In this document: positions 6,979 to 59,361 of the stretch, piece by piece
Numbering within the stretch: the first letter of the stretch is position 1
Layout: every line of letters starts with the position of its first letter
NCBI GenBank assembly: GCA_041665345.1
Contig: JBAYJA010000001.1
Coordinates: 73,206-137,205 of the forward strand
DNA from: Patescibacteria group bacterium
GTDB taxonomy: Bacteria; Patescibacteriota; Patescibacteriia; PEXW01
Direction: 5' to 3'
Length of the DNA stretch: 64,000 nt
Made by a program: the position numbers and the translations under genes
Notes under the pieces: model-generated
Database searches by the model: none
Seen by the model: the letters and a program-made list of their open reading frames with translations, nothing else
Told to the model about the DNA's origin: nothing

Positions 6979-7065
6979 TGTCATTCTGAGCCTCACTGCA
7001 GTGGGGCGAAGAATCTCCGTGGTTGGTTACAGTCTTCAGAGATCCTTCGAAGACTCAGGATGACA
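6979..7065 (+). repeat. MITE-like element with 12-bp terminal inverted repeats TGTCATTCTGAG / CTCAGGATGACA.
   Basis: A second copy at 38282..38388 shares the terminal inverted repeats and a 25-nt right-end block GAGATYCTTCGAAGACTCAG. Confidence 0.4.
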
Positions 7066-7153
7066 AAAAGCACCAAAGATCTCTACAGCTTTATGGCTCT
7101 ACCCCGACGATCCCACTGCGGGATGTCGGGGCGGGTGGCTTTCTGGCTTCTTC

Positions 7154-8245
7154 CTACACTCCGACGCGGAAATGCGCCACGTCGCCATCGCGCATGACGT
7201 ACTCTTTGCCTTCAATGCGCAGCAAGCCTTTGTCTCGGCAGCCAGACTCGCCGTACTGCACCAGATCTTTCCAATCCATTACCTCCGCACGGATGAATGC
7301 ACTTTCAAAATCGGAGTGGATAACCCCCGCCGCTTCTGGTGCCAGCGCACCTTGGCGGACAGTCCAGGCTTTGGTTTCCATTTCTCCAGAGGTGAAGAAG
7401 GTGAGCAGCCCCAGGGTGTGATACGCCTTCTTTATCAACCGGTTCAAGCCGGGTTCAGTGAGGCCTAAGTCTTTCAGGTACGCGTCAGCTTCCTCCGTTG
7501 TGAGCTCTGCAAGTTCTGCTTCAATTTTTGCTGAGATGACCAGCACATCCTCCACGTTGAATTTGTTCGCCTCGGCAAACTGTTTCTGAAGAGTGTCCGC
7601 ATTTTTTAATTCTGCTTCATCGGCGTTGATGACGTAGAGTACAGGTTTGCCAGACAAGAGCTGTAACTCCTTGATAAGCGGTCCCAAATCAGCATCTTCT
7701 CGAAACGTGCGAGCCGGGGTGCCAGCCGCCAACGCCTGTTCCAGTTTTTCCAAATGGGGGAGCTGTGCCACGCTGAGTTTATCTCCCGACTTCACTTTCC
7801 CCCGTGCTGTCTCCACCCGTTTCTTCACTGCCTCCAAATCCGCCAGAGCAAGCTCAGTGTCAATGGTAGCCACATCTTCAATCGGATTGACCCGGTTATC
7901 CACATGGATGACGTCGGGATCGGTAAAAGACCGAACCACGTGGGCAATGGCCGCCACCTCTCGAATGTTCGCCAAAAACTTGTTGCCCAAGCCTTCACCC
8001 TTGTGCGCGTCTTTCACTAAACCAGCAATGTCTACGAATTCAATAATCGTGGGCACAATTTTGCCCGACGCGCTGACCTTGGCCATGGGCGCCAGGCGTT
8101 CATCCGGCACTTCCACCACGCCCACGTTGGGATCTATGGTGGTAAAGGGGTAGTTTTCCGCGGGCACAGCCTTCTTCGTAAGGGCGCGGAATAAACTGGA
8201 TTTTCCGACGTTGGGGAGACCAACAATTCCTATTTGGAGTGACAT
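7154..8245 (-). CDS. ychF: Ribosome-binding ATPase YchF.
   Basis: IGIVGLPNVGKSSLFRALT and NYPFTTIDPNVG, with a C-terminal TGS domain. Confidence 0.9.
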   Translation of the reverse strand: MSLQIGIVGLPNVGKSSLFRALTKKAVPAENYPFTTIDPNVGVVEVPDERLAPMAKVSASGKIVPTIIEFVDIAGLVKDAHKGEGLGNKFLANIREVAAIAHVVRSFTDPDVIHVDNRVNPIEDVATIDTELALADLEAVKKRVETARGKVKSGDKLSVAQLPHLEKLEQALAAGTPARTFREDADLGPLIKELQLLSGKPVLYVINADEAELKNADTLQKQFAEANKFNVEDVLVISAKIEAELAELTTEEADAYLKDLGLTEPGLNRLIKKAYHTLGLLTFFTSGEMETKAWTVRQGALAPEAAGVIHSDFESAFIRAEVMDWKDLVQYGESGCRDKGLLRIEGKEYVMRDGDVAHFRVGV

Positions 8246-9300: not shown

Positions 9301-10124
9301 TTCTCAGCTAGTCGCAGAGTTCGCTCCAGCAGCATCGCCACGGTCACGGGCCCAACGCCGCCAGGTACGGGTGTTAGCCAGCCGGGCTGATTTGCCATAC
9401 TCGCTGCGTCCACATCGCCCACCACTTTCCCGTCTACACGGTTAAACCCCACGTCAACAATAATGACGTCTGGTTTGGTATGTTCAGCTTTGAGGAAACC
9501 AGCTTTGCCAAGGGCAATGACAATGAGGTCGGCGTCTTTTGTTGCTTGGGCAAAGTCACGGAAGGGGGGGTAGAGCAAGGTCACGTCCAAACCTGCACGG
9601 GTGAGCAGCATGGCCATGGGTTCGGCGAAGATGGGGCCATTTGCCAGCACCACCGCTTTTTTTCCGTCTAGAGGTACGCCGGGAACTTGTGCCAAAGCCA
9701 AGACACCTTCGCACAAGCCAGGAGCCAGTGCACCCGGCACATTCTGCTTGTAGCGTTCCAGGTTGGTTTTGTGAAAGCCGTCTGCGTCTTTTGCGGGATC
9801 AATGGCGGAAACCACCGTGTCAGCATTCAGCTGGTTTGGCAGCGGGAGCTGGACAATCATGCCACTGATAGCTGCGTTGGCATTGAGTGCTTGGATTTTT
9901 TGCACCACCGTTGCTTCATCCACTGTTGCGGGAAAGCGGTGTACTTCGGCATGGATGCCAACCTGTGCAGCAGCTTCTTCTTTGAGGCGAACGTAGGTGA
10001 CGGAAGCTGGGTCGTCACCAACCAAAACAATTGCTAAGCCAGGTCGGGTGCTGCTTGCGGCGCAGTGTGTCTTCACACTGCTGAGTATGCTATTAGCTAA
10101 TGCACGACCGTCAATCTTCTGCAT
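9297..10124 (-). CDS. folD: Bifunctional methylenetetrahydrofolate dehydrogenase/cyclohydrolase.
   Basis: 275 aa with GRALA and YVRLK motifs and a Rossmann-type GxG region. Confidence 0.9.
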   Translation of the reverse strand: MQKIDGRALANSILSSVKTHCAASSTRPGLAIVLVGDDPASVTYVRLKEEAAAQVGIHAEVHRFPATVDEATVVQKIQALNANAAISGMIVQLPLPNQLNADTVVSAIDPAKDADGFHKTNLERYKQNVPGALAPGLCEGVLALAQVPGVPLDGKKAVVLANGPIFAEPMAMLLTRAGLDVTLLYPPFRDFAQATKDADLIVIALGKAGFLKAEHTKPDVIIVDVGFNRVDGKVVGDVDAASMANQPGWLTPVPGGVGPVTVAMLLERTLRLAEN

Positions 10125-10126
10125 GA

Positions 10127-10169
10127 GTTACGAATTACGAATAGATACTACGAAAATACGAATTACGAA
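10127..10169 (-). repeat. Tandem heptamer array (W)TACGAA ending 2 nt before the folD start codon.
   Basis: Plus strand reads GTTACGAATTACGAATAGATACTACGAAAATACGAATTACGAA. In folD sense it reads ...TTCGTAATTCGTAACTC-ATG. Confidence 0.6.
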
Positions 10170-10353
10170 AAGGATATGTATGTAGAGAAGAGGAATTTTG
10201 ATGGAGGGGGTCGCCACCCACCCACCTTCGCCGAAGCGGCTTCGCGCAGGCAGGTATCGGTATACGGCATCGTCAATCGCGTAACGTACCGAGTACCGGA
10301 TCCGAAGCCTTACTTACGATACAGGCTGCGACACCGTCCTACGTTAGCCGAGT

Positions 10354-23038: not shown

Positions 23039-24781
23039 CTACACGTCCAGAATCACTGGGATAATCATGGGCCGGCGTTCGGTCTTCTGGAAGAGGAAGG
23101 TGCCCAGGCCATCGCGGAGGCGGGTACTCAGGTAGCCTTCGTTCACCCCCGTGCGTTTGTCAACGTCTTTCAGCAGCGCGTGAACTTTCTTCTTTATCTC
23201 TTCCAGGAGGCGGGTGTTGGTCTTGGCGTACACAAACCCATGGGTGATGATGTGCAGGTCGTTGACCAGCTTCCCAGTTGTTCGTTCCACTTTGGCAATG
23301 ACCACCACCATGCCGTCACTGGCCAGGGTTTGGCGGTCACTGAGCACAACGTTGGATACGTCACCGACACCCAGTCCATCCACAAATACGTAGTCGGTCC
23401 GCACTTTCTGGGGGTAGAGTTTGGGCTTGCCGTGGGTGAACTCCAAGACGTTGCCGTTGTCCAGCACAAAACTTTTGTCTTTTGGAAAACCTTCTCGAAG
23501 TGCCAGCTTCTGTGCTTCTTTCAGGAAGTAGTGGTTGGCGTAGACGGGTAAGAAGAAGGTGGGCCGGATTTGCTTCAGCACGGCCATCATATCCGTGGCG
23601 GTGCTGTGGCCAGACGTGTGCACGTCCATGATGTCGCTATGAATGACATTATCCGTGAGTCGGTAGAGGTTGTCCTTCAAGCGCTGGATCGTCCGCTCGT
23701 TCCCCGGGATGACCGAGGAAGAGAAGACAATGGTATCCGTCTTTCGGATTTTCACCGTGCGGTGGTCGCCATTCACAATCCGGGACAGGGCAGCATTACT
23801 CTCGCCTTGCGCGCCGGTGCAGAGAATGATGACGCGACGGTCGGGGTAGTCATGAATGCGGTCAATGGGAATCAGCAATTCTTTCCGCATCTGGATGTAC
23901 CCAAGCTGCTTGGCGATTTCCACATTGGTTTTCATACTGAATCCATCCAAGGCAACTTTCTTGCCCAGTTTTTGGGCAAACTCCAGGAGGTGCTTGATGC
24001 GCTCCAGCTGGCTGGAGAAGGTGCCAATGATCAACCGGCCTGGTGCCTCGCGTACGAGTTTTTCCAAATTGGCGTACATCACCCGTTCTGGCACGCGCTC
24101 TTTGGTGCTCATGGAACCCAAGGATTCCAACATGAGAATGGACGGCTTGGGTACGTTGCGGAGTTGGGTGTACTCAATGCTCTGCCGACCCACTGGGTCT
24201 TTCTCGTACGTCCAGTCACCTGGGTGGATGACGGAGCCGTGTGGGGTTTGGATCACCACGCCCACTGCGTCCATGATGGAGTGGTCGACGGGGAAGAAGC
24301 TAATCTGGAAAGCGCCCAGCCGCAGCCGGTCTGTCACTTTCTTAATGACAATGGTGCGCAAATTCTTTGCTGCGCCTTTCTGGTAGTCCTCCACGCGGTG
24401 CTTGATCATCGCCAAGGTGAGCGGGCGGCCAGCAATTTGCGGGTAGCCCAGCTGCTCCAGCAGAATGGCGGAGGCGCCAATGTGGTCCAGGTGGCCGTGG
24501 CTGAAAATCACCCCGCGGATGCGGCGCTCTTTACCTTTCAGGTAGGAGAGGTTGGGAATGATGTAATCCACCCCGGGCATGTCCTCCTCCGGGAACTGCA
24601 CGCCCATGTCCAAGATAATGATGTCATTTCCGTATTCGAAGATGGTGCAGTTGCGTCCCACTTCTTCGTTGCCGCCAATGGGAATAATCCGCAGGCAGTC
24701 CTTGGGCGGGAGGTTGAGCGAGGGTTCTGGCCGCACGAAGCGGCGGGTTGGTGTTGGTCGTTGTCGTCTATTTTTTGCCAT
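23039..24781 (-). CDS. rnj: Ribonuclease J.
   Basis: Metallo-beta-lactamase motif FSHGHLDH, a beta-CASP region, and a C-terminal domain. Start chosen at MAKNRRQR. Confidence 0.9.
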   Translation of the reverse strand: MAKNRRQRPTPTRRFVRPEPSLNLPPKDCLRIIPIGGNEEVGRNCTIFEYGNDIIILDMGVQFPEEDMPGVDYIIPNLSYLKGKERRIRGVIFSHGHLDHIGASAILLEQLGYPQIAGRPLTLAMIKHRVEDYQKGAAKNLRTIVIKKVTDRLRLGAFQISFFPVDHSIMDAVGVVIQTPHGSVIHPGDWTYEKDPVGRQSIEYTQLRNVPKPSILMLESLGSMSTKERVPERVMYANLEKLVREAPGRLIIGTFSSQLERIKHLLEFAQKLGKKVALDGFSMKTNVEIAKQLGYIQMRKELLIPIDRIHDYPDRRVIILCTGAQGESNAALSRIVNGDHRTVKIRKTDTIVFSSSVIPGNERTIQRLKDNLYRLTDNVIHSDIMDVHTSGHSTATDMMAVLKQIRPTFFLPVYANHYFLKEAQKLALREGFPKDKSFVLDNGNVLEFTHGKPKLYPQKVRTDYVFVDGLGVGDVSNVVLSDRQTLASDGMVVVIAKVERTTGKLVNDLHIITHGFVYAKTNTRLLEEIKKKVHALLKDVDKRTGVNEGYLSTRLRDGLGTFLFQKTERRPMIIPVILDV

Positions 24782-24949
24782 GTTGTTTGATAATTGAGAT
24801 TCGAGAGTTGCAGGCATTGCCTACAGTAAAAAGTGAGATTAGTGGTGAACGTAATTGAGGTTACCGAAGAAGGTTACAGGTTTTGCATTCCCGGATCCCC
24901 GTTGAGCGGAAGCACAGCCCGCTCTGGGGCGAGCACTGAACACTATCTT

Positions 24950-25006
24950 GGGGTCCCCACAGACGTGGCGCGCAACCATGTCTTCATGGTGAGCACGCGT
25001 CTGTGG
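24950..25006. repeat. Hairpin repeat element X, copy A: an 11-bp outer stem with a variable apical hairpin.
   Basis: GGGGTCCCCACAGACGTGGCGCGCA-[ACCATGTCTTCATGGT]-GAGCACGCGTCTGTGG. Copies B and C lie at 55466 and 59108. Confidence 0.5.
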
Positions 25007-25050: not shown

Positions 25051-25149
25051 GGCTCGCCAGCCGTAGCCCGAGAACAAACGTCGTGTCCTCCTACGCTCGG
25101 AAGCTTCGGAGGACAGCCTTCGCCCTCGTCAAAGCCCGAGGGCGAAGGC
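25051..25149 (-). repeat. Conserved module immediately 3' of tRNA-Leu, copy A: two strong hairpins plus GGCTNGCCAGCCGTAGC.
   Basis: Minus strand after the tRNA CCA end: hairpin AGCCTTCGCCCTCG...CGAGGGCGAAGGCT, then GTCCTCC...GGAGGAC, then GCTACGGCTGGCGAGCC. A near-identical module follows tRNA-Ser at 55656..55754. Confidence 0.5.
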
Positions 25150-25236
25150 TGGTGCCGGAGAGAGGACTTGAACCTCCATGGGATTGCTCCCACACGGCTC
25201 TGAACCGTGCGTGTATACCAATTTCACCACTCCGGC
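25150..25236 (-). tRNA. tRNA-Leu(CAG).
   Basis: Minus strand reads GCCGGAGTGGTGAAATTGGTATACACGCACGGTTCAGAGCCGTGTGGGAGCAATCCCATGGAGGTTCAAGTCCTCTCTCCGGCACCA. 7-bp acceptor stem, long variable arm, anticodon loop TTCAGAG, TTCAAGT T-loop, encoded CCA. Confidence 0.85.
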
Positions 25237-27606: not shown

Positions 27607-27699
27607 ACGTGGATTTGAGTGTACGAATTTTACCTGTACTTGTCAAGGCGAGCCTATCATCGTACCCTAGAGAGAGAATCGAAACTAAGCCAAAAAGGT

Positions 27700-28782
27700 A
27701 TGTATAAACCCACTGGGTTCATCGCCCTCCCCACCCTGGGTCTGCTCATTCTTGTAGCAGCCGGCATTGCTTTTGCCTCCTGGTGGTTTGCGGGCAGGGA
27801 AGAAGCAGTAGCGCCAACCATTTCCAATTTTACGGAGTGCGCGGCAGCCGGGAATCCAGTGATGGAAAGTTACCCCCGCCAGTGTAATGCGAATGGCCAG
27901 AATTTTGTGGAGGTGATTGTGAATACGAATGCAGTGGTGAATGAGAATGTGCCCGGCGAAGCCGGGTCCGGCTCCGCCGGAAATGTTGGAGTGAACAGTA
28001 ATACCAACGCTGCGACGAACACGAATGTCGCGGTGAATGGAAATACAAATATTGTTGCAGATCCAACCGCGGGGTGGAAGACGTACACGAGTACGACGCA
28101 CGGTTTTTCGCTGAAATACCCAACAACAATGCGTGTCTTGGAAGTGAACGAAACGAATGGGATTATTCTTCGTGTTGGGGTCGCTGGTAGTTCTAATGGA
28201 GATAATATTTTAATTTATAATAAAAGTGCTAATTCTGGTATACCGTATAGTACGGTTAAAACTGGGAATGGTAGAACGTTTGTCATTTCCCATGTTGGAA
28301 CTGAGGCTGATCTAATCCTCTCCACCTTCACTATCCTTGATGCGACTAAAAATTGGAACGAGTTTACAAATAAACCCTGGGGTTTTTCCTTCAAGTACCC
28401 GAAAGAGTGGAAAGTATTGCAAAATTCTATCCAGGCAATTGATACAATGGGGCTGCCGGAAAACGTACTGAAGATCGGGGCAAGTCCACGGCCTATATTC
28501 GTATTGTATGTCGATCCAATGGGTTGGGGGGTTGGAAATGTGCACTATGCAATGACGGTAAAAAAGCAAAACGACAAATTTATCATTGTTGAAGGAAAAC
28601 CTACTGGTGCAAAAACAGGGGAATTTGGGTTAAGTGAATACTATTCAGTAAGTGTCAGGCAAGAAAATGCAGAAAATCCTCGAATATACATTAGCTTTCA
28701 TTCAGCAATAAAAGCTGAAGAATCTGCTGAATTTAATTCCTTGGTAAGACAAATTATTTCAACCTTTACTTTCACAAAGTAA
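27700..28782 (+). CDS. Membrane-anchored hypothetical protein with an Asn-rich linker and duplicated DPTAGWKTYT..YP modules; tandem paralog of the next gene.
   Basis: TM helix IALPTLGLLILVAAGIAF, linker NTNAVVNEN...NSNTNAATNTNVAVNGNTN, repeats DPTAGWKTYTSTTHGFSLKYP and KPWGFSFKYPKEW. The C-terminal half is markedly AT-richer. Confidence 0.55.
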   Translation: MYKPTGFIALPTLGLLILVAAGIAFASWWFAGREEAVAPTISNFTECAAAGNPVMESYPRQCNANGQNFVEVIVNTNAVVNENVPGEAGSGSAGNVGVNSNTNAATNTNVAVNGNTNIVADPTAGWKTYTSTTHGFSLKYPTTMRVLEVNETNGIILRVGVAGSSNGDNILIYNKSANSGIPYSTVKTGNGRTFVISHVGTEADLILSTFTILDATKNWNEFTNKPWGFSFKYPKEWKVLQNSIQAIDTMGLPENVLKIGASPRPIFVLYVDPMGWGVGNVHYAMTVKKQNDKFIIVEGKPTGAKTGEFGLSEYYSVSVRQENAENPRIYISFHSAIKAEESAEFNSLVRQIISTFTFTK

Positions 28783-28786
28783 GTAT

Positions 28787-30004
28787 ATGCATAACCACCC
28801 CAAAGGTTTTCTCCCCATCGCGGTGGTCCTGGTTGCAGTTGTTGCCGCACTGGTTGTTGCCGGTGCGTCGTACTGGTACACCAAGGATAAAGCTGAGGAA
28901 GTAGTGAATACCAATACTGCCGTCCTTACCAATACGAACACGGTGAATGAGAATGTGAATGTTGCAGTGAATAGCAACGTCAATGCGACGAACACGAATG
29001 CGGCCGTGAATAACAACACGAATGCCGCTAACGGAACAAGTAAAACGTATACGTCAGCTACACGGGGTATCTCTTTCACCTACGCGCCAACATACGCTGA
29101 CTACAAGATTTTAGTGAAAGAAACTTCAAGTATGCTCTATGTCTACACTGAGGACATGAAACCCGAAGCCGGTCAGTTTGTTCAGTGGTTTACAAAAACA
29201 GCGTCGACCCCACTGAAGTCCGCAATTGAGCAACAGTTTTTGAAAGGCTACTCGTCCGCAGATTGCTTCGTTATCACGCCTGATACATACTCTGCTTCCA
29301 AGATGGGGTCAGGTTGGAACACTGCACGCATTGCGTACCCGCCCGCAGCGGTTAACGCGGAAAATCCATGGGTCGGCGCTGAGAAGTGTCCAAAGGTATA
29401 TACTGCGAGTAATGGTCTAAGTTACTTTGCGGAGGACAAGGATGATCCAACAAAGTTTTTCTTCTTTAGTATTGGGCAGTACATGATCCCCGCTGGGTCC
29501 GCCACGGTTGGTGAAAAAGGCTGGGAGGAAACGGTCACAATTGATCCAACGGTGGGGTGGAAGACGTATACGAATATGTCCTACGGGTACTCAATAAAAT
29601 ACCCAGCTGACTGGATTTTGGATATAGCATCAATTAGCTCTGGGGATTTGTATATTCTCACTAAGGAACGACAAGAAAAGTTAGACGCGAAAAAAATGAT
29701 TAGAGTTATGGACATTGGGGTCAAGGTATACACATCGGCATCAGACTTACCAAACAATTCAGTAAAGAAGCTAGGCTTTGAGGATTGGATTGATCAAGAG
29801 GCTGACTCATATGGTTTTATCAAACGCAAATCGATCACCCTGGATGGGGTTGTAGGCTATCAAGGCGTAGGCTCTGGTGATGGTGCTTCGTACCTAATTT
29901 TTATACAAAAAAGCGGGAGGATATATGAAATCCAGACCGGTGATACGCAATCTCCTTCACAAATTGAGCAGCTGGTGATAAATTCATTTATTTTTACGGA
30001 GTAG
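28787..30004 (+). CDS. Membrane-anchored hypothetical protein, paralog of 27700..28782.
   Basis: TM helix LPIAVVLVAVVAALVVAG, linker NTNTAVLTNTNTVNENVNVAVNSNVNATNTNAAVNNNTN, modules GTSKTYTSATRGISFTYAP and DPTVGWKTYTNMSYGYSIKYPADW. Confidence 0.55.
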   Translation: MHNHPKGFLPIAVVLVAVVAALVVAGASYWYTKDKAEEVVNTNTAVLTNTNTVNENVNVAVNSNVNATNTNAAVNNNTNAANGTSKTYTSATRGISFTYAPTYADYKILVKETSSMLYVYTEDMKPEAGQFVQWFTKTASTPLKSAIEQQFLKGYSSADCFVITPDTYSASKMGSGWNTARIAYPPAAVNAENPWVGAEKCPKVYTASNGLSYFAEDKDDPTKFFFFSIGQYMIPAGSATVGEKGWEETVTIDPTVGWKTYTNMSYGYSIKYPADWILDIASISSGDLYILTKERQEKLDAKKMIRVMDIGVKVYTSASDLPNNSVKKLGFEDWIDQEADSYGFIKRKSITLDGVVGYQGVGSGDGASYLIFIQKSGRIYEIQTGDTQSPSQIEQLVINSFIFTE

Positions 30005-35545: not shown

Positions 35546-35608
35546 GTTACGAAATACGAATATGGTTACGAATTACGAAATAAAGATACGAAACTACGAA
35601 TGTACGAA
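35546..35608. repeat. Tandem heptamer array (W)TACGAA, about eight units.
   Basis: TTACGAAATACGAATATGGTTACGAATTACGAAATAAAGATACGAAACTACGAATGTACGAAT, then GGGGAGGGAATGGG. A 28-nt block is identical to part of the 2038..2080 array. Confidence 0.6.
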
Positions 35609-38281: not shown

Positions 38282-38388
38282 CTGTCATCCTGAATTATAT
38301 GACCTGTCCGCCGAAGCAGCAGCGTAGGTGGAATGATCCCCAGACGATGTATCAACTTCGGAGATTCTTCGAAGACTCAGAATGACAG
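38282..38388 (+). repeat. MITE-like element, copy 2, with terminal inverted repeats CTGTCATCCTGA / TCAGAATGACAG.
   Basis: Shares the terminal inverted repeats and the right-end block GAGATTCTTCGAAGACTCAG with 6979..7065. Confidence 0.4.
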
Positions 38389-38434
38389 AGGGAGGGGCGA
38401 GGAGTAGCGGGGAGGCACAGCAATGCATGCTTGA

Positions 38435-38813: not shown

Positions 38814-38936
38814 GTTACGAAATACGAAATTTCGTACGAAAATACGAATTACGAACCCATTTACCAGCTAGTTGCAAGAGTAGTTGAAACCGTTCGTATT
38901 TCGTACTTTCGTAGCATTTCATTCGTAATTCGTAAT
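38814..38936 (+). repeat. Two inverted arrays of the (W)TACGAA heptamer, five TACGAA units then five TTCGTA units, flanking a 35-nt core; the array ends 5 nt before the groES ATG.
   Basis: GTTACGAAATACGAAATTTCGTACGAAAATACGAATTACGAAC ... GTTCGTATTTCGTACTTTCGTAGCATTTCATTCGTAATTCGTAAT, then TACTT-ATG. Confidence 0.6.
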
Positions 38937-53552: not shown

Positions 53553-55367
53553 TTACTGTCCCGCTTCCAACTGGATAAAGAGTCTGGCCAGGCGGAGCTC
53601 TTCGTAGGTAAAATGTTCGCCCAAGATTTCCCGAACCGGGGAGAGTAACCAGCTCTTGGATTTTTTGAATGCTTGGGCAATTTCCTGGAGATCATTGGCA
53701 TGTGGCCGGAGGTACTCCACGTCGATATTTTTTCGAGTTTGAAGTAACTTCTCAATATGACCCACAATCGTGGTCGGGGACATACCCCGTCGACGAGCGA
53801 TTTCCGTAAGCGGTAATTTTTGGCGAAGCAATTCTTGCGTCGCGGTATAGGTTGTACCAAGCAGCGCAACCTTTGGTGTTCGAGCCAGAGCTGGTTCACT
53901 CCTGGCTTTTTCCGTTATATGCTTTTGCTTGGCGTATGCCTGAATGGCACGCACGAACGTCTCACCCAATTCTTGTAGCTTCCGCTGACCCACGCCGTAC
54001 ACGCGGGCAAAGCTCCCTAGACTTTGGGGGAAGTACGTCGCCATATCTTGGAGACTCTTGTCCCCAAAAATCACAAATGGTGGAACGCCATGTACATCGG
54101 CTAAACGTTTGCGCAGCGCCCGCAGTTCCTCGAAGAGTTCAGCATCATAGGCAGCTGGCGCATCAGCAACACCCTGGGTTTGTAGCGCAGGGACACATAG
54201 GTCGCAAGCGCCACAATTTTTGGTTGGCCAGCTTTCCCCAAAGTACTCCAGCAGGTATTTTCGGCGGCAGGTGTGCCCGTCGCAGTAGGCAACAACTTGT
54301 TGCAGTTTGTGCTCCACTTGTTGGCGTTCGGCAGGATCCGCAATTTGCTGGCTGAAGAAGCGGTGCTTCCGTGTGTCCCCGTAGGAGTAGTAGAGAATGC
54401 ACTGGCTGGGTAAACCGTCCCGCCCGGCGCGGCCAGTTTCCTGGTAGTACCCTTCAATGGACTTCGGCAGGTCGTAGTGGACAATCAACCGGACATCCGG
54501 TTTATCAATACCCATGCCAAAGGCAATGGTGGCAACGATGATCCGGACTTCATCGCGGATAAATTGTTCTTGGGTAGCCTGGCGAAGTGTCGGCTCTAAC
54601 CCAGCGTGGTAGGGCAAAGCCGAAAAACCCTGCTCGCGCAGATTCGCCGCCAGATTTTCGGTGTCCTTGCGGGAGAAGCAGTAAATAATCGCGCTGCCTG
54701 TGCTGTGGTGCAGCACGTCCACCAGTGCAGCAAAGGTTTGGTGCTTGGGGCGCACTAGGTAGGTGAGGTTGGGTCGGTTGAAGCTGGAGACAAAAAATTT
54801 TGGCGACCGCAGCGCCAGCTGTTTGATAATATCCTCGCGCACTCGTTCCGTGGCAGTAGCGGTTAAGGCAATGACGGGAACGTCTGGAAAATCTTGGCGC
54901 AGTTGGACTAAGTTTCGATAGTCAGGCCGGAAGTCATGCCCCCATTCAGAAATGCAGTGTGCTTCGTCCACAGCTATGTACGAAACAGCAACATCCTGTA
55001 ACCATTCCCGGAAGTAGGGGAGCGCCAGACGTTCGGGTGCCAGGTACAGAATTTTTAACCCCCCGGTCTCCACCTGGGTTTGCACCTGCCGAATCGTTTC
55101 AGCATCCAAAGTACTGTTAATAAACGCGGCGGCAATCCCATTCGCGCGCAGGGCGTCCACCTGGTCTTTCATCAACGAGATGAGCGGGGAAATAACCACA
55201 GTTACCCCATCCACCATGAGCGCGGGTAGCTGAAAACACAGCGACTTACCGCCACCAGTGGGCATGAGTACCAACGTATCCTGCTTTTGCAAAACCTGGG
55301 TGATGATTTCCTCCTGCAAGGGTCGGAACGCCTGGAACCCAAAATGTTTTTTCAATAATGCGTGCAT
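53553..55367 (-). CDS. recQ: ATP-dependent DNA helicase RecQ.
   Basis: N-terminus [33 protein letters not shown] box ([15 protein letters not shown]), a Zn-binding Cys cluster, and RQC and HRDC-like C-terminal domains. Confidence 0.9.
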
Positions 55368-55465
55368 AGTACAGACTTATGAATGAATCGCGAAATGAGT
55401 GTCTACTCGGTACAGAGAAGGGTAACGGATGGGTGGAAAGTTGGCAAGGCAGACGATTTTTCTTC

Positions 55466-55535
55466 GGGGCCCCCACAGATGTGGCGCGCAGTCCCGCTGC
55501 GGGACGAGCACGCGTCTGTGGGGTCAAGCGAGGCT
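55466..55535. repeat. Hairpin repeat element X, copy B.
   Basis: GGGGCCCCCACAGATGTGGCGCGCA-[GTCCCGCTGCGGGAC]-GAGCACGCGTCTGTGGGG-TCAAGCGAGGC. Confidence 0.5.
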
Positions 55536-55655
55536 TCGTGGGAACGGTGGAGCGGGATGCGCAAAAAGCGCGTCACGCGGAACTGTGACCACGAAACGAG
55601 CTGCCCTGAACCACTCCTCGCCCGACTCATCGGTTGCAGGGCATGAACCAGGACT

Positions 55656-55754
55656 GGCTTGCCAGCCGTAGCTCTTCCAACATACTCTATGTCCTCCTTC
55701 GCTAGGAGCTTCGGAGGACAGCCTTCGTCCTCAACAAAGCTTGAGAGCGAAGGC
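55656..55754 (-). repeat. Conserved module immediately 3' of tRNA-Ser, copy B.
   Basis: GGCTTGCCAGCCGTAGC, then hairpins GTCCTCC...GGAGGAC and AGCCTTCG...CGAAGGCT, in the same order and position as after tRNA-Leu. Confidence 0.5.
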
Positions 55755-55842
55755 TGGCGGAAGGGGCGAGATTCGAACTCGCGATACCTTTCGGTATACT
55801 CGCTTTCCAAGCGAGCGCACTCGGCCACTATGCGACCCTTCC
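55755..55842 (-). tRNA. tRNA-Ser(GGA).
   Basis: Minus strand reads GGAAGGGTCGCATAGTGGCCGAGTGCGCTCGCTTGGAAAGCGAGTATACCGAAAGGTATCGCGAGTTCGAATCTCGCCCCTTCCGCCA. Long variable arm, anticodon loop TTGGAAA, TTCGAAT T-loop, encoded CCA. Confidence 0.85.
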
Positions 55843-55903
55843 ACGAAATGCGAATGTAGCATACCTGGCGATTTGAGCAAGGGCAACTGCTATACTTTGG
55901 GCA

Positions 55904-55938
55904 TGCCACAATGCACCTGGCTAGGCGAAGATTCGCCT
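55904..55938 (+). pseudogene. Duplicated remnant of the tag 5' end (MPQCTWLGEDS vs MTNCTWPGEDS).
   Basis: ATGCCACAATGCACCTGGCTAGGCGAAGATTCGCC versus the tag start ATGACCAACTGCACCTGGCCAGGCGAAGATTCAC at 56574; about 30/35 identical. Confidence 0.4.
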
Positions 55939-59107: not shown

Positions 59108-59210
59108 GGGGTCCCCATGAATGTGGCGCGGACCCTGAGTGAGCCCCGCAATCCTGCGGGATAAACTCCACGAATCGAAGGGGAGCACGCGTTCATGGGG
59201 TCAAGCGAGC
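59108..59210. repeat. Hairpin repeat element X, copy C; the outer stem carries three compensatory base-pair changes.
   Basis: GGGGTCCCCATGAATGTGGCGCGG-[long variable insert]-GAGCACGCGTTCATGGGG-TCAAGCGAGCC. ACAGA/TCTGT in copies A and B becomes ATGAA/TTCAT here. Confidence 0.5.
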
Positions 59211-59361
59211 CTGCCCCGTACCGGACCCCGAGCGGAGTCGAGGGGGACTGGTGCGGGGGCTTCGAACGGCCTCCGGCCCGGAGGGAACCCGTAGTGGAGC
59301 CGCGAATGCGGGTACACGGAGGGTGGAGTTCGAAATGAGCGTCTGCTACACTAACCAAGCT

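Follow-up and report, generated by a model that had tools for sequence, protein, structure and literature searches.

Hairpin modules behind two tRNA genes of a Patescibacteria group bacterium and their kinship with a mini GIY-YIG nuclease cassette

Two modules directly behind tRNA genes

The stretch of DNA analysed here (hereafter the window) comprises 64,000 nucleotides (nt) of a Patescibacteria group bacterium genome, contig JBAYJA010000001.1. It carries two transfer RNA (tRNA) genes on the minus strand, tRNA-Leu(CAG) at 25150-25236 (-) and tRNA-Ser(GGA) at 55755-55842 (-), both recognised by ARAGORN and Rfam, and behind each of them lies a hairpin-rich module, which is the subject of this report. 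The modules are 99 nt long, lie on the minus strand and begin right after CCA, copy A at 25051-25149 and copy B at 55656-55754, where the CCA of tRNA-Ser abuts the module. The original prediction, made from the sequence alone, was that nearly the same stretch of about 100 nt stands directly 3′ of CCA at both genes, and this is confirmed: 82 of 101 aligned columns are identical between the modules (81%), compared with only 55% identity between the two tRNAs. When folding was compared with that of shuffled sequence, module regions A and B gave z scores of -7.1 and -5.2. The source genome was searched over the window and 18 kb of flanks (about 82 kb), in which an nhmmer profile of the module found two copies only (E = 2e-15 and 2e-17).

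The two hairpins and the 17-mer that had been proposed as parts of the module are all present in both copies. Hairpin 1 (GCCTTCGC..GCGAAGGC) has 13 pairs, or 14 if the A of CCA is counted. In module A (25116-25149 (-)) its arm a, GCCTTCGCCCTCG, pairs with arm a′, CGAGGGCGAAGGC, around the loop GGCTTTGA, and in module B it lies at 55721-55754 (-) (GCCTTCGCTCTCAAG..TTGAGGACGAAGGC); the inner stem differs between the copies by compensatory changes (CTCG/CGAG against CTCA/TGAG, and C-G against T-A). Hairpin 2 has the form GTCCTCC-GAA-GC..GC-GWA-GGAGGAC in both, specifically GTCCTCC-GAA-GCT(TCCG)AGC-GTA-GGAGGAC in module A (25085-25114 (-)), with a conserved 3x3 internal loop and a GGAGG core within the 3′ arm, and GTCCTCC-GAA-GCT(CCT)AGC-GAA-GGAGGAC in module B (55691-55719 (-)). 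The 17-mer, GCTACGGCTGGCRAGCC, has two exact matches in the window and three matches at three mismatches or fewer, where 0.36 would be expected by chance.

A further part, here called segment b, closes the module. In copy A (25051-25069 (-)) it reads GGGC-TAC-GGCTGG + CGAGCC and is complementary to CCA plus arm a (CCAGCC-TTC-GCCC), so that the CCA of tRNA-Leu (25150-25152) forms the outer part of a long-range helix, a:b. A CCATC downstream of segment b closes a small b hairpin there, recreating the CCA-N junction. In copy B (55656-55675 (-)) the segment reads AGAGC-TAC-GGCTGG + CAAGCC, is complementary to CCAGCC-TTC-GCTCT and covaries with arm a between the two copies.

The hairpin family and its nuclease gene

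Genomes, one per species, were scanned for hairpin 2 with the pattern GGCTGTCCTCCGAAGC-N8-20-GGAGGAC. Exact hairpin 2 was found at 22 loci, labelled Alphaproteobacteria, Opitutae, Patescibacteria, Omnitrophota, Nitrospira, Bacteroidota and others, and including the isolate Mesorhizobium abyssinicae (L010). At 12 of the 22 a tRNA gene of the same strand ends just ahead of it, and at one a transfer-messenger RNA (tmRNA) gene does. A scan of metagenomes for hairpin 2 alone gave at least 120 loci; among the 120 matches listed, 32 lie within 130 nt after a tRNA gene (covering 12 amino-acid specificities), 36 belong to a free-standing element described below and 52 have other contexts. Over the genome and metagenome matches listed, roughly a third directly follow a tRNA or tmRNA gene. 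Because exact matches were required, the invariance of the stem in these sets is partly a selection effect.

The copies are built from one block, H, of the form CCNCC-NNN-GC[stem]GC-NNN-GGNGG, with a conserved 3x3 mismatch and a C-NNN-G motif in each arm. H hairpins occur in both orientations. Hairpin 2 is H(+), and the window hairpins at 25085-25114 and 55691-55719 fit its version (G)YCCTCC-GWA-GC[stem]GC-GWA-GGAGGR(C); the a:b helix is H(-), with the architecture that hairpin 2 shows on the other strand, and the CCA of the tRNA itself takes part in its outermost pairs. The symmetric 3x3 GAA/GWA loop presumably fits neither the K-turn nor the sarcin-ricin consensus. Copies linked to tRNA genes follow a common scheme, in which tRNA…CCA is followed by a (N-CC-TWC-GC-x…), a′ (…x′-GC-GWA-GG-N′), a T, hairpin 2 and b (x′-GC-TWC-GG-N′-TGG-C…), often with (A/T)GG-CCA-N-CC directly behind b.

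In this scheme arm a is complementary to two alternative partners, a′ and b, and both pairings covary. The base N that follows CCA takes all four values across lineages and is matched both in a′ and in b, where the corresponding variants are GGCTGG, GGATGG, GGTTGG and GGGTGG. Segment b pairs with CCA plus arm a through 6 bp, a 3x3 loop and then 4-7 bp. Since MAFFT mis-registers the variable inner stems, anchored counts and nhmmer were used: among 36 copies, 33-36 have Watson-Crick pairs at the positions of CCANCC:GGN′TGG, and 33-35 at the next four paired positions. In alignment A2, 87-96% of cells are paired in both the a:a′ and the a:b structures, against 29-54% with slid partners; up to five pair types (a:a′) and four (a:b) occur at variable positions, and the covariation score was reached by none of 500 shuffles.

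Arm a′ stands directly 5′ of hairpin 2 in every copy, and the position of b defines two arrangements. In type I loci b follows a directly, as a local hairpin, with a′ and hairpin 2 downstream of it; type II loci, those of the window among them, have a′ and hairpin 2 inside the loop of a:b. Segment b together with the downstream CCA-N recreates a tRNA-like junction, and the tandem arrays at five loci (L014, L134, L058, L123 and L128) restart exactly at this b/CCA-N junction.

Outside tRNA ends, hairpin 2 occurs in varied company. The free-standing element measures about 145-190 nt, has sharp bounds and reads TTCACCCGCC…hairpin 2…GCTTCGGCGGG…CCACGG…CCGTGGGGCTCCAC; its frequency at contig ends indicates that it behaves as a multicopy repeat. 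It forms two subfamilies (examples are L029, L031, L044, L054, L027 and L085) and is without an Rfam family. Hairpin 2 was also found within RNase P RNA (L068, 10083-10111 in a gene at 9914-10339; L037, 4856-4886), in a ribosomal RNA (rRNA) operon spacer (L050), near a 5S gene (L126), in frame inside a coding gene (L141) and centrally in other palindromic repeats (L106, L039 and L041). It contains a stop codon in none of its six frames. A coding origin in the window is disfavoured by the covarying apex of variable length and by the intergenic position. The RNase P RNA of L037 also bears an H(-)-type hairpin, CCCTCCTTCGCTAAAGCTATGGAGGG.

The window itself holds a MITE-like element (resembling a miniature inverted-repeat transposable element), with inverted ends TGTCATYCTGA…TCAGRATGACA and copies at 6988-7066 and 38284-38390 (+). 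The second copy bears an H-type hairpin, CCGCCGAAGCAGCAGCGTAGGTGG (38308-38331), and gives a weak, isolated nhmmer match to the module at 38305-38342. The palindromic repeats of L106, L039 and L041 ('GTCATCCTGAGCGAAGCG…' elements) are related to it, with hairpin 2 nested centrally.

Several collections were searched for earlier traces of the module. Rfam 15 was applied to the window and to 35 loci at the gathering threshold, and to the module at E <= 10. It has no family for the module; only tRNA, tmRNA, rRNA and RNase P were matched, and the sub-threshold scores on the module are noise. A scan of 2.9 million viral contigs for hairpin 2 gave 0 matches and a blastn search with a rhizobial-type module against 72,556 plasmids gave none; therefore, a phage or plasmid origin is unsupported. 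A full-text literature search found no account of this architecture of tRNA, hairpin and GIY-YIG gene. A possible lead is the Sinorhizobium (S.) meliloti small RNA candidate sm137, promoterless and located just 3′ of tRNA-Gln, which gives bands of about 150 nt and about 80 nt (PMC2573895) and may or may not have the sequence of the module.

In other genomes the hairpins are linked to a nuclease gene. At eight loci found through the motif (L001, L003, L004, L008, L009, L017, L102 and L108), tblastn detects an open reading frame (ORF) of the GIY-YIG family (PF01541, beginning MFYVYL…) 15-40 nt past hairpin 2. L011 has a truncated version of the ORF behind hairpin 2, and in L021 the distance to it is 129 nt; L002 has the reverse order, with the module behind a GIY-YIG gene. 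The encoded protein is a GIY-YIG catalytic domain (PF01541) of about 80 amino acids (aa), the catalytic domain alone being matched. Its closest solved relatives are UPF0213 (1zg2, E = 5e-8) and SLX1, a structure-selective nuclease. More than 1,000 database relatives are annotated just as 'GIY-YIG nuclease family protein', and NCBIfam has no specific family for it.

To counter motif bias, a second sample was chosen from the protein side, with four alphaproteobacterial homologues, three from Bacteroidota and one from Woesebacteria. In all eight loci the GIY-YIG gene stands directly 3′ of a tRNA gene or, in one, of a tRNA 3′ remnant, and H hairpins lie between the two, again in eight of eight. 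All four alphaproteobacterial homologues follow tRNA-Ser and have a:b, a′ and hairpin 2 in a compensatory variant (GCCCTCC…GGAGGGC). The four distant ones (Lacibacter luteus, two Bacteroidota-like and the Woesebacteria homologue) have an H(+) hairpin ahead of the ATG, three of them behind tRNA-Ser and one behind tRNA-Ala. Stem variants at these protein-side loci are compensatory (GCCCTCC/GGAGGGC, CCCTCC/GGAGGG and GGCCTCC/GGAGGCC). Behind the ORF, the three Bacteroidota loci carry an H(-) hairpin (CCTCC-TTC-GC…GC-TAC-GGAGG) and, after it, a direct duplicate of about 22 nt of the tRNA 3′ end. Such an order (tRNA, H(+), nuclease gene, H(-), tRNA 3′ duplicate) reads as the signature of a cassette that would have been inserted at the tRNA end. 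In the ORF-bearing loci hairpin 2 and the ATG stand too close together to leave space for a promoter, so transcription of the nuclease gene must come from an upstream or tRNA promoter.

The window modules are homologous to these ORF-bearing cassettes and share their anchoring at the tRNA end. The expected 80-aa PF01541 ORF, 10-130 nt past the hairpin, is absent from both, and they are ORF-less members or derivatives of the hairpin and GIY-YIG cassette family.

Three loci carry additional elements beside tRNA genes. In L153/L154 (1-1500), one of the alphaproteobacterial loci, the intact tRNA-Ser is replaced by a tyrosine-integrase gene on the opposite strand; only the 3′ remnant of the tRNA stands downstream of it, and the remnant is followed by module and GIY-YIG gene. 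An integrase island seems to have been inserted there into a tRNA already carrying the cassette. In L020 (7200-7750 (-)), a divergent small GIY-YIG ORF (MAFLYILLSS…), the second such gene, lies between partial tRNA-Trp copies that have a hairpin, CTCCGGGCCTACGGCCCCGAGGGCCGGAGG, inserted in the anticodon-loop region; three copies of the CTCCGGGCCTACGGCCCCGAGGGCCGGAGG hairpin surround the intact tRNA-Trp (7248-7321). In L008 (2076-2520 (+)), tRNA-Gln is followed by three tandem units of about 150 nt and then by the module and GIY-YIG gene. Each unit ends in a copy of the last 24 nt or so of tRNA-Gln (TTCGAATCCTAGTCCCGCAGC), and these units look like another type of element aimed at tRNA 3′ ends.

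Surroundings of the modules in the source genome

Each module is followed by a further hairpin, X, at 24955-25006 (-) after module A (CCACAGACGCGTGC..GCGCGCCACGTCTGTGGGG) and at 55471-55521 (-) after module B, where a leader, GCTCGTTTCG..CGAAGCCTCGCTTG, stands just before it (55522-55600). The distance from the 17-mer is 45 nt in the first case and about 135 nt in the second. X had been regarded as part of a composite region shared by the two tRNA flanks. It does stand after both modules, but it is a separate, lineage-specific repeat family of the repetitive extragenic palindromic (REP) kind, with a third copy near 59110-59215 (-) that follows a gene end with no tRNA nearby. In the relative L020, X and its GCTCGTTTCG…CGAAGCCTCGCTTG leader sit behind a tRNA-Gly that is without a module.

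The same-strand genes downstream of the modules are unrelated to each other, RNase J (rnj) at 23039-24817 in one case and RecQ at 53553-55367 in the other; upstream lie a gene for a solute-binding protein and small ORFs without annotation. The 82 kb yielded no integrase, transposase or GIY-YIG gene, and tblastn with five members of the mini GIY-YIG family gave zero matches in the window or its flanks. Neither tRNA 3′ end is duplicated in the window, their 22-mers being unique even at three mismatches or fewer. A good sigma-70-like promoter stands ahead of tRNA-Leu, and no promoter of the module's own is predicted on the module strand. Between tRNA-Leu and rnj no intrinsic terminator was found; a T-run follows neither hairpin 1, hairpin 2 nor X, and the sole minus-strand terminator match here is weak, a site of 5 bp (55572-55589) that lies past segment b and ahead of the X hairpin. 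The identity of the module as an intrinsic terminator was rejected for want of a T-run.

Other tRNA genes were inspected for the same 3′ module, as had been suggested, with a divided outcome. The next tRNA past the window end, tRNA-Asn(GTT) (L155, 13206-13300 (+)), is without a module, and the relative L020 has one at tRNA-Thr and none at tRNA-Gly and tRNA-Trp. In the source genome the full module occurs only at tRNA ends (two of three tRNAs), but hairpin 2 alone stands at many non-tRNA sites elsewhere. The tRNA-Asn gene has CCAGCC after its CCA, the same as the module's first six bases (CCA + GCC), which may be chance or a footprint.

Public gene calls place a 168-aa 'gene' at 55403-55909 (-) (L155, 3546-4052 (-)), across tRNA-Ser, the module and the X hairpin. 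It has no Pfam match, and in all likelihood the repeat has produced a spurious ORF here. Two other kinds of repeat occur in the window. Short arrays rich in the heptamer TTACGAA (e.g. TACGAAAATACGAATTACGAA) occupy four intergenic sites (2033-2080, 10122-10169, 35546-35607 and 38814-38855), and two adjacent paralogous genes for PsbP-like domains, 27619-28782 (+) and 28787-30004 (+), have internal DNA repeats in common (28011-28122 and 28984-29605). G+C falls locally to 44% around these paralogues (27619-30004).

Explanations, known systems and significance

Whether the stems have been conserved as RNA or as DNA can be approached through their mismatches, as selection on the tRNA-sense RNA should give G-U far above A-C. 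The counts, all of them small, are 10 G-U against 11 A-C in hairpin 1, 7 against 13 in the apex of hairpin 2 and 9 against 6 in the free-standing element, for pairs predicted on both strands. The two strands of the latter fold equally well (-58.8 and -56.5 kcal/mol). Since G-U is not in excess over A-C and the strands fold alike, the palindromes appear to be kept or copied at the DNA level, a reading that is further favoured by the tandem arrays, the two orientations, the nesting in palindromes and the in-frame coding insertions. The comparison thus favours conservation of the stems as DNA-level palindromes rather than as RNA.

On balance, the modules are probably relics or MITE-like gene-less copies of a selfish cassette, made of hairpins and a mini GIY-YIG gene, that targets the CCA ends of tRNA and tmRNA genes. 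The module looks like selfish DNA landing at tRNA ends, not like a tRNA-processing signal. Specifically, we infer a mobile cassette for which the conserved tRNA 3′ end would be a safe landing site and which would ride on the tRNA promoter. The nuclease would mobilise the hairpins by nicking or cutting at or near them or at the tRNA end, with repair copying the element in, and loss of the ORF would leave MITE-like hairpin modules such as the window pair. Because segment b recreates the CCA-N junction, it is proposed that modules can persist and amplify as tandem arrays. The window pair is probably carried along passively in the tRNA transcript and cut away during 3′ maturation. A wider claim is possible, if rather doubtful: that H hairpins and the 80-aa UPF0213/SLX1-like protein form an unrecognised, cross-phylum class of mobile elements, whose minimal, structure-selective nuclease would recognise extruded hairpin or cruciform DNA and install itself and gene-less 'MITEs' at tRNA and tmRNA CCA ends, the hairpin also invading palindrome tips, RNase P RNA and coding genes.

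Several points weigh against the selfish cassette. A partner enzyme in the source organism is unproven, with no GIY-YIG gene in the 82 kb, and insertion itself is a deduction, no presence/absence polymorphism having been obtained at an orthologous tRNA locus. The 80-aa catalytic domain has no obvious DNA-binding module that would give site specificity, and the alphaproteobacterial cassettes have neither an H(-) hairpin nor a tRNA duplicate after the ORF. Most of the loci were drawn from metagenome-assembled genomes and metagenomes and may thus carry mistaken taxonomic labels; two isolates, Mesorhizobium abyssinicae (L010) and Lacibacter luteus (L159), vouch for two phyla or more. The G-U and A-C counts are few, and two features fit an RNA or protein-binding role as well: tRNA-linked copies keep a constant orientation to the tRNA, and the GAA/GWA 3x3 loop and the CCTCC/GGAGG core are invariant. 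Indeed, this fixed orientation and this invariant loop and core, together with the promoterless nuclease gene and the GGAGG core that hairpin 2 sequesters, fit an additional RNA role. In phages, genes for homing endonucleases are often masked from translation in a comparable manner.

The strongest competitor, which we nevertheless regard as unlikely, is a functional RNA within the tRNA precursor. In such an RNA b and a′ would compete for arm a, controlling or insulating 3′ maturation or blocking exonucleases, and in ORF-bearing copies the hairpins would form a stabilising 5′ leader of the GIY-YIG mRNA, with GGAGG masked by GTCCTCC. The module indeed begins at the very base after CCA, tRNA-linked copies without exception share the strand of the tRNA, the a:b helix takes in CCA and covaries, and the sense strand conserves a purine 3x3 loop (GAA/GWA); the lack of promoter room ahead of the ATG, by which the nuclease gene is read from upstream, and the absence of a terminator between tRNA-Leu and rnj are likewise what such an RNA would call for, and the bands of sm137 would fit too if its sequence is that of the module. 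However, G-U does not exceed A-C in any helix and both strands fold alike; on the sense strand a pyrimidine 3x3 loop destabilises the a:b helix; H is found in reversed orientation beside tRNAs in Bacteroidota and within RNase P RNA; tandem arrays and in-frame coding insertions suit repeat DNA better; the module is missing at one of three tRNAs in the source genome and at two of three in L020; and no Rfam family matches. The processing or termination module that the original prediction had offered first finds no support, there being no T-run terminator, Rfam match or G-U excess. Conservation that is strand-symmetric, with a CCTCC/GGAGG core and asymmetric NNN invariant across phyla while the apical stems vary freely, would also suit a duplex site whose inverted CCNCC-NNN-GC half-sites are bound by a host factor or dimer, acting, for instance, to insulate transcription or replication downstream of highly expressed tRNA genes. 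This is improbable: no candidate binder other than GIY-YIG is linked to the site, the apical and inner stems covary as hairpins, which duplex binding does not need, and nesting and tandem arrays resemble the dynamics of repeats.

An independent small regulatory RNA gene, or a 5′ untranslated region element of rnj and recQ, is very improbable. The predicted folding is strong and both modules lie upstream of same-strand genes, yet the genes that follow have no relation to one another, either here or at the other loci, and there is no predicted promoter of the module's own, Rfam match or strand-specific covariation signal. The small RNA gene raised at the outset lacks support as well, with arrays and both orientations occurring elsewhere. 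Of the possibilities raised then, the remnant of an integrative element at tRNA 3′ ends came closest. The modules are homologous to nuclease-gene cassettes at tRNA ends and the Bacteroidota cassettes are bracketed by a tRNA 3′ duplicate, but the enzyme is a nuclease, not an integrase, and the window has no duplicate, integrase or nuclease gene. The conventional form of that idea, in which the modules are the leftover attachment sites (attL/attR) of a tyrosine-integrase island once present in the tRNA genes, is largely refuted and hardly to be entertained. Though tRNA and tmRNA 3′ ends are classic integrase targets, and L153 has an integrase island inserted in tRNA-Ser beside a module, that island is upstream of the module and separate from it. 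Modules that are 81% identical, and that stand behind tRNAs of many specificities (those in the window being 55% identical), are unlike att scars. An att scar was rejected for the window, which has no duplicated tRNA end and no integrase nearby.

Among palindromic repeats that have a nuclease of their own, the closest analogue is the system of REP sequences, their inverted doublets (REPINs) and REP-associated tyrosine transposases (RAYTs). Both consist of short GC-rich imperfect palindromes, often in inverted doublets that fold locally or as one long hairpin, and both have a dedicated single-domain nuclease gene flanked by repeats, with gene-less copies dispersed and conserved as DNA. They differ in that the genes seen beside H repeats in other genomes are of the GIY-YIG kind (UPF0213/SLX1-like) and not HUH Y1 transposases, that H copies are anchored on tRNA and tmRNA CCA ends instead of being scattered after ORFs, and that the H core is the same across phyla. 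Copy number is low in the 82 kb searched, at two modules; REP sequences number tens to hundreds over a whole genome. REP palindromes carry a GTAG or CGTC tag at one end (PMC3733652). Membership of the module in the REP family was rejected, as there is no GTAG/CGTC tag and the hairpin ends are GTCC../..GGAC and CCAGCC../..GGCTGG.

A precedent for a GIY-YIG gene among tRNA genes is SegB of phage T4, a homing endonuclease within a tRNA gene cluster (PMC2330249). Free-standing GIY-YIG homing genes resemble the cassettes in placing a nuclease gene beside tRNAs, presumed to spread by cleavage followed by repair, and the Bacteroidota cassettes likewise hold a duplicated piece of the target gene. Unlike Seg-like genes, the proteins here measure about 80 aa, are without a DNA-binding domain and are chromosomal in bacteria; H hairpins are always present, and the window copies are without any ORF. 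Rickettsia palindromic elements (RPEs) and MITEs are also small palindromic repeats found in RNA genes and in frame in protein genes, with ORF-less copies and ends like terminal inverted repeats (here CCANCC… and …GGN′TGG). They have no sequence relationship with H, whose distribution is not lineage-restricted, which has no known DDE transposase partner and whose target is a defined junction right after CCA. Finally, tyrosine-integrase elements of tRNA genes share the use of the conserved tRNA or tmRNA 3′ end as a safe insertion site; the window, however, has no integrase or att-type duplication, and the element is built of hairpins and measures about 100-350 nt.

In practice, the selfish-cassette reading advises caution before tRNA trailers like the module are annotated as small RNAs, terminators or proteins, and it draws attention to a conserved motif in RNase P RNA, rRNA spacers and coding genes. 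If the selfish-cassette reading is true, the very common, uncharacterised UPF0213/YhbQ-like family of about 80 aa would be the enzyme of a selfish cassette at tRNA ends, and GC-rich hairpins in tRNA flanks, including those translated into spurious ORFs such as the 168-aa one over tRNA-Ser, would have found an origin.

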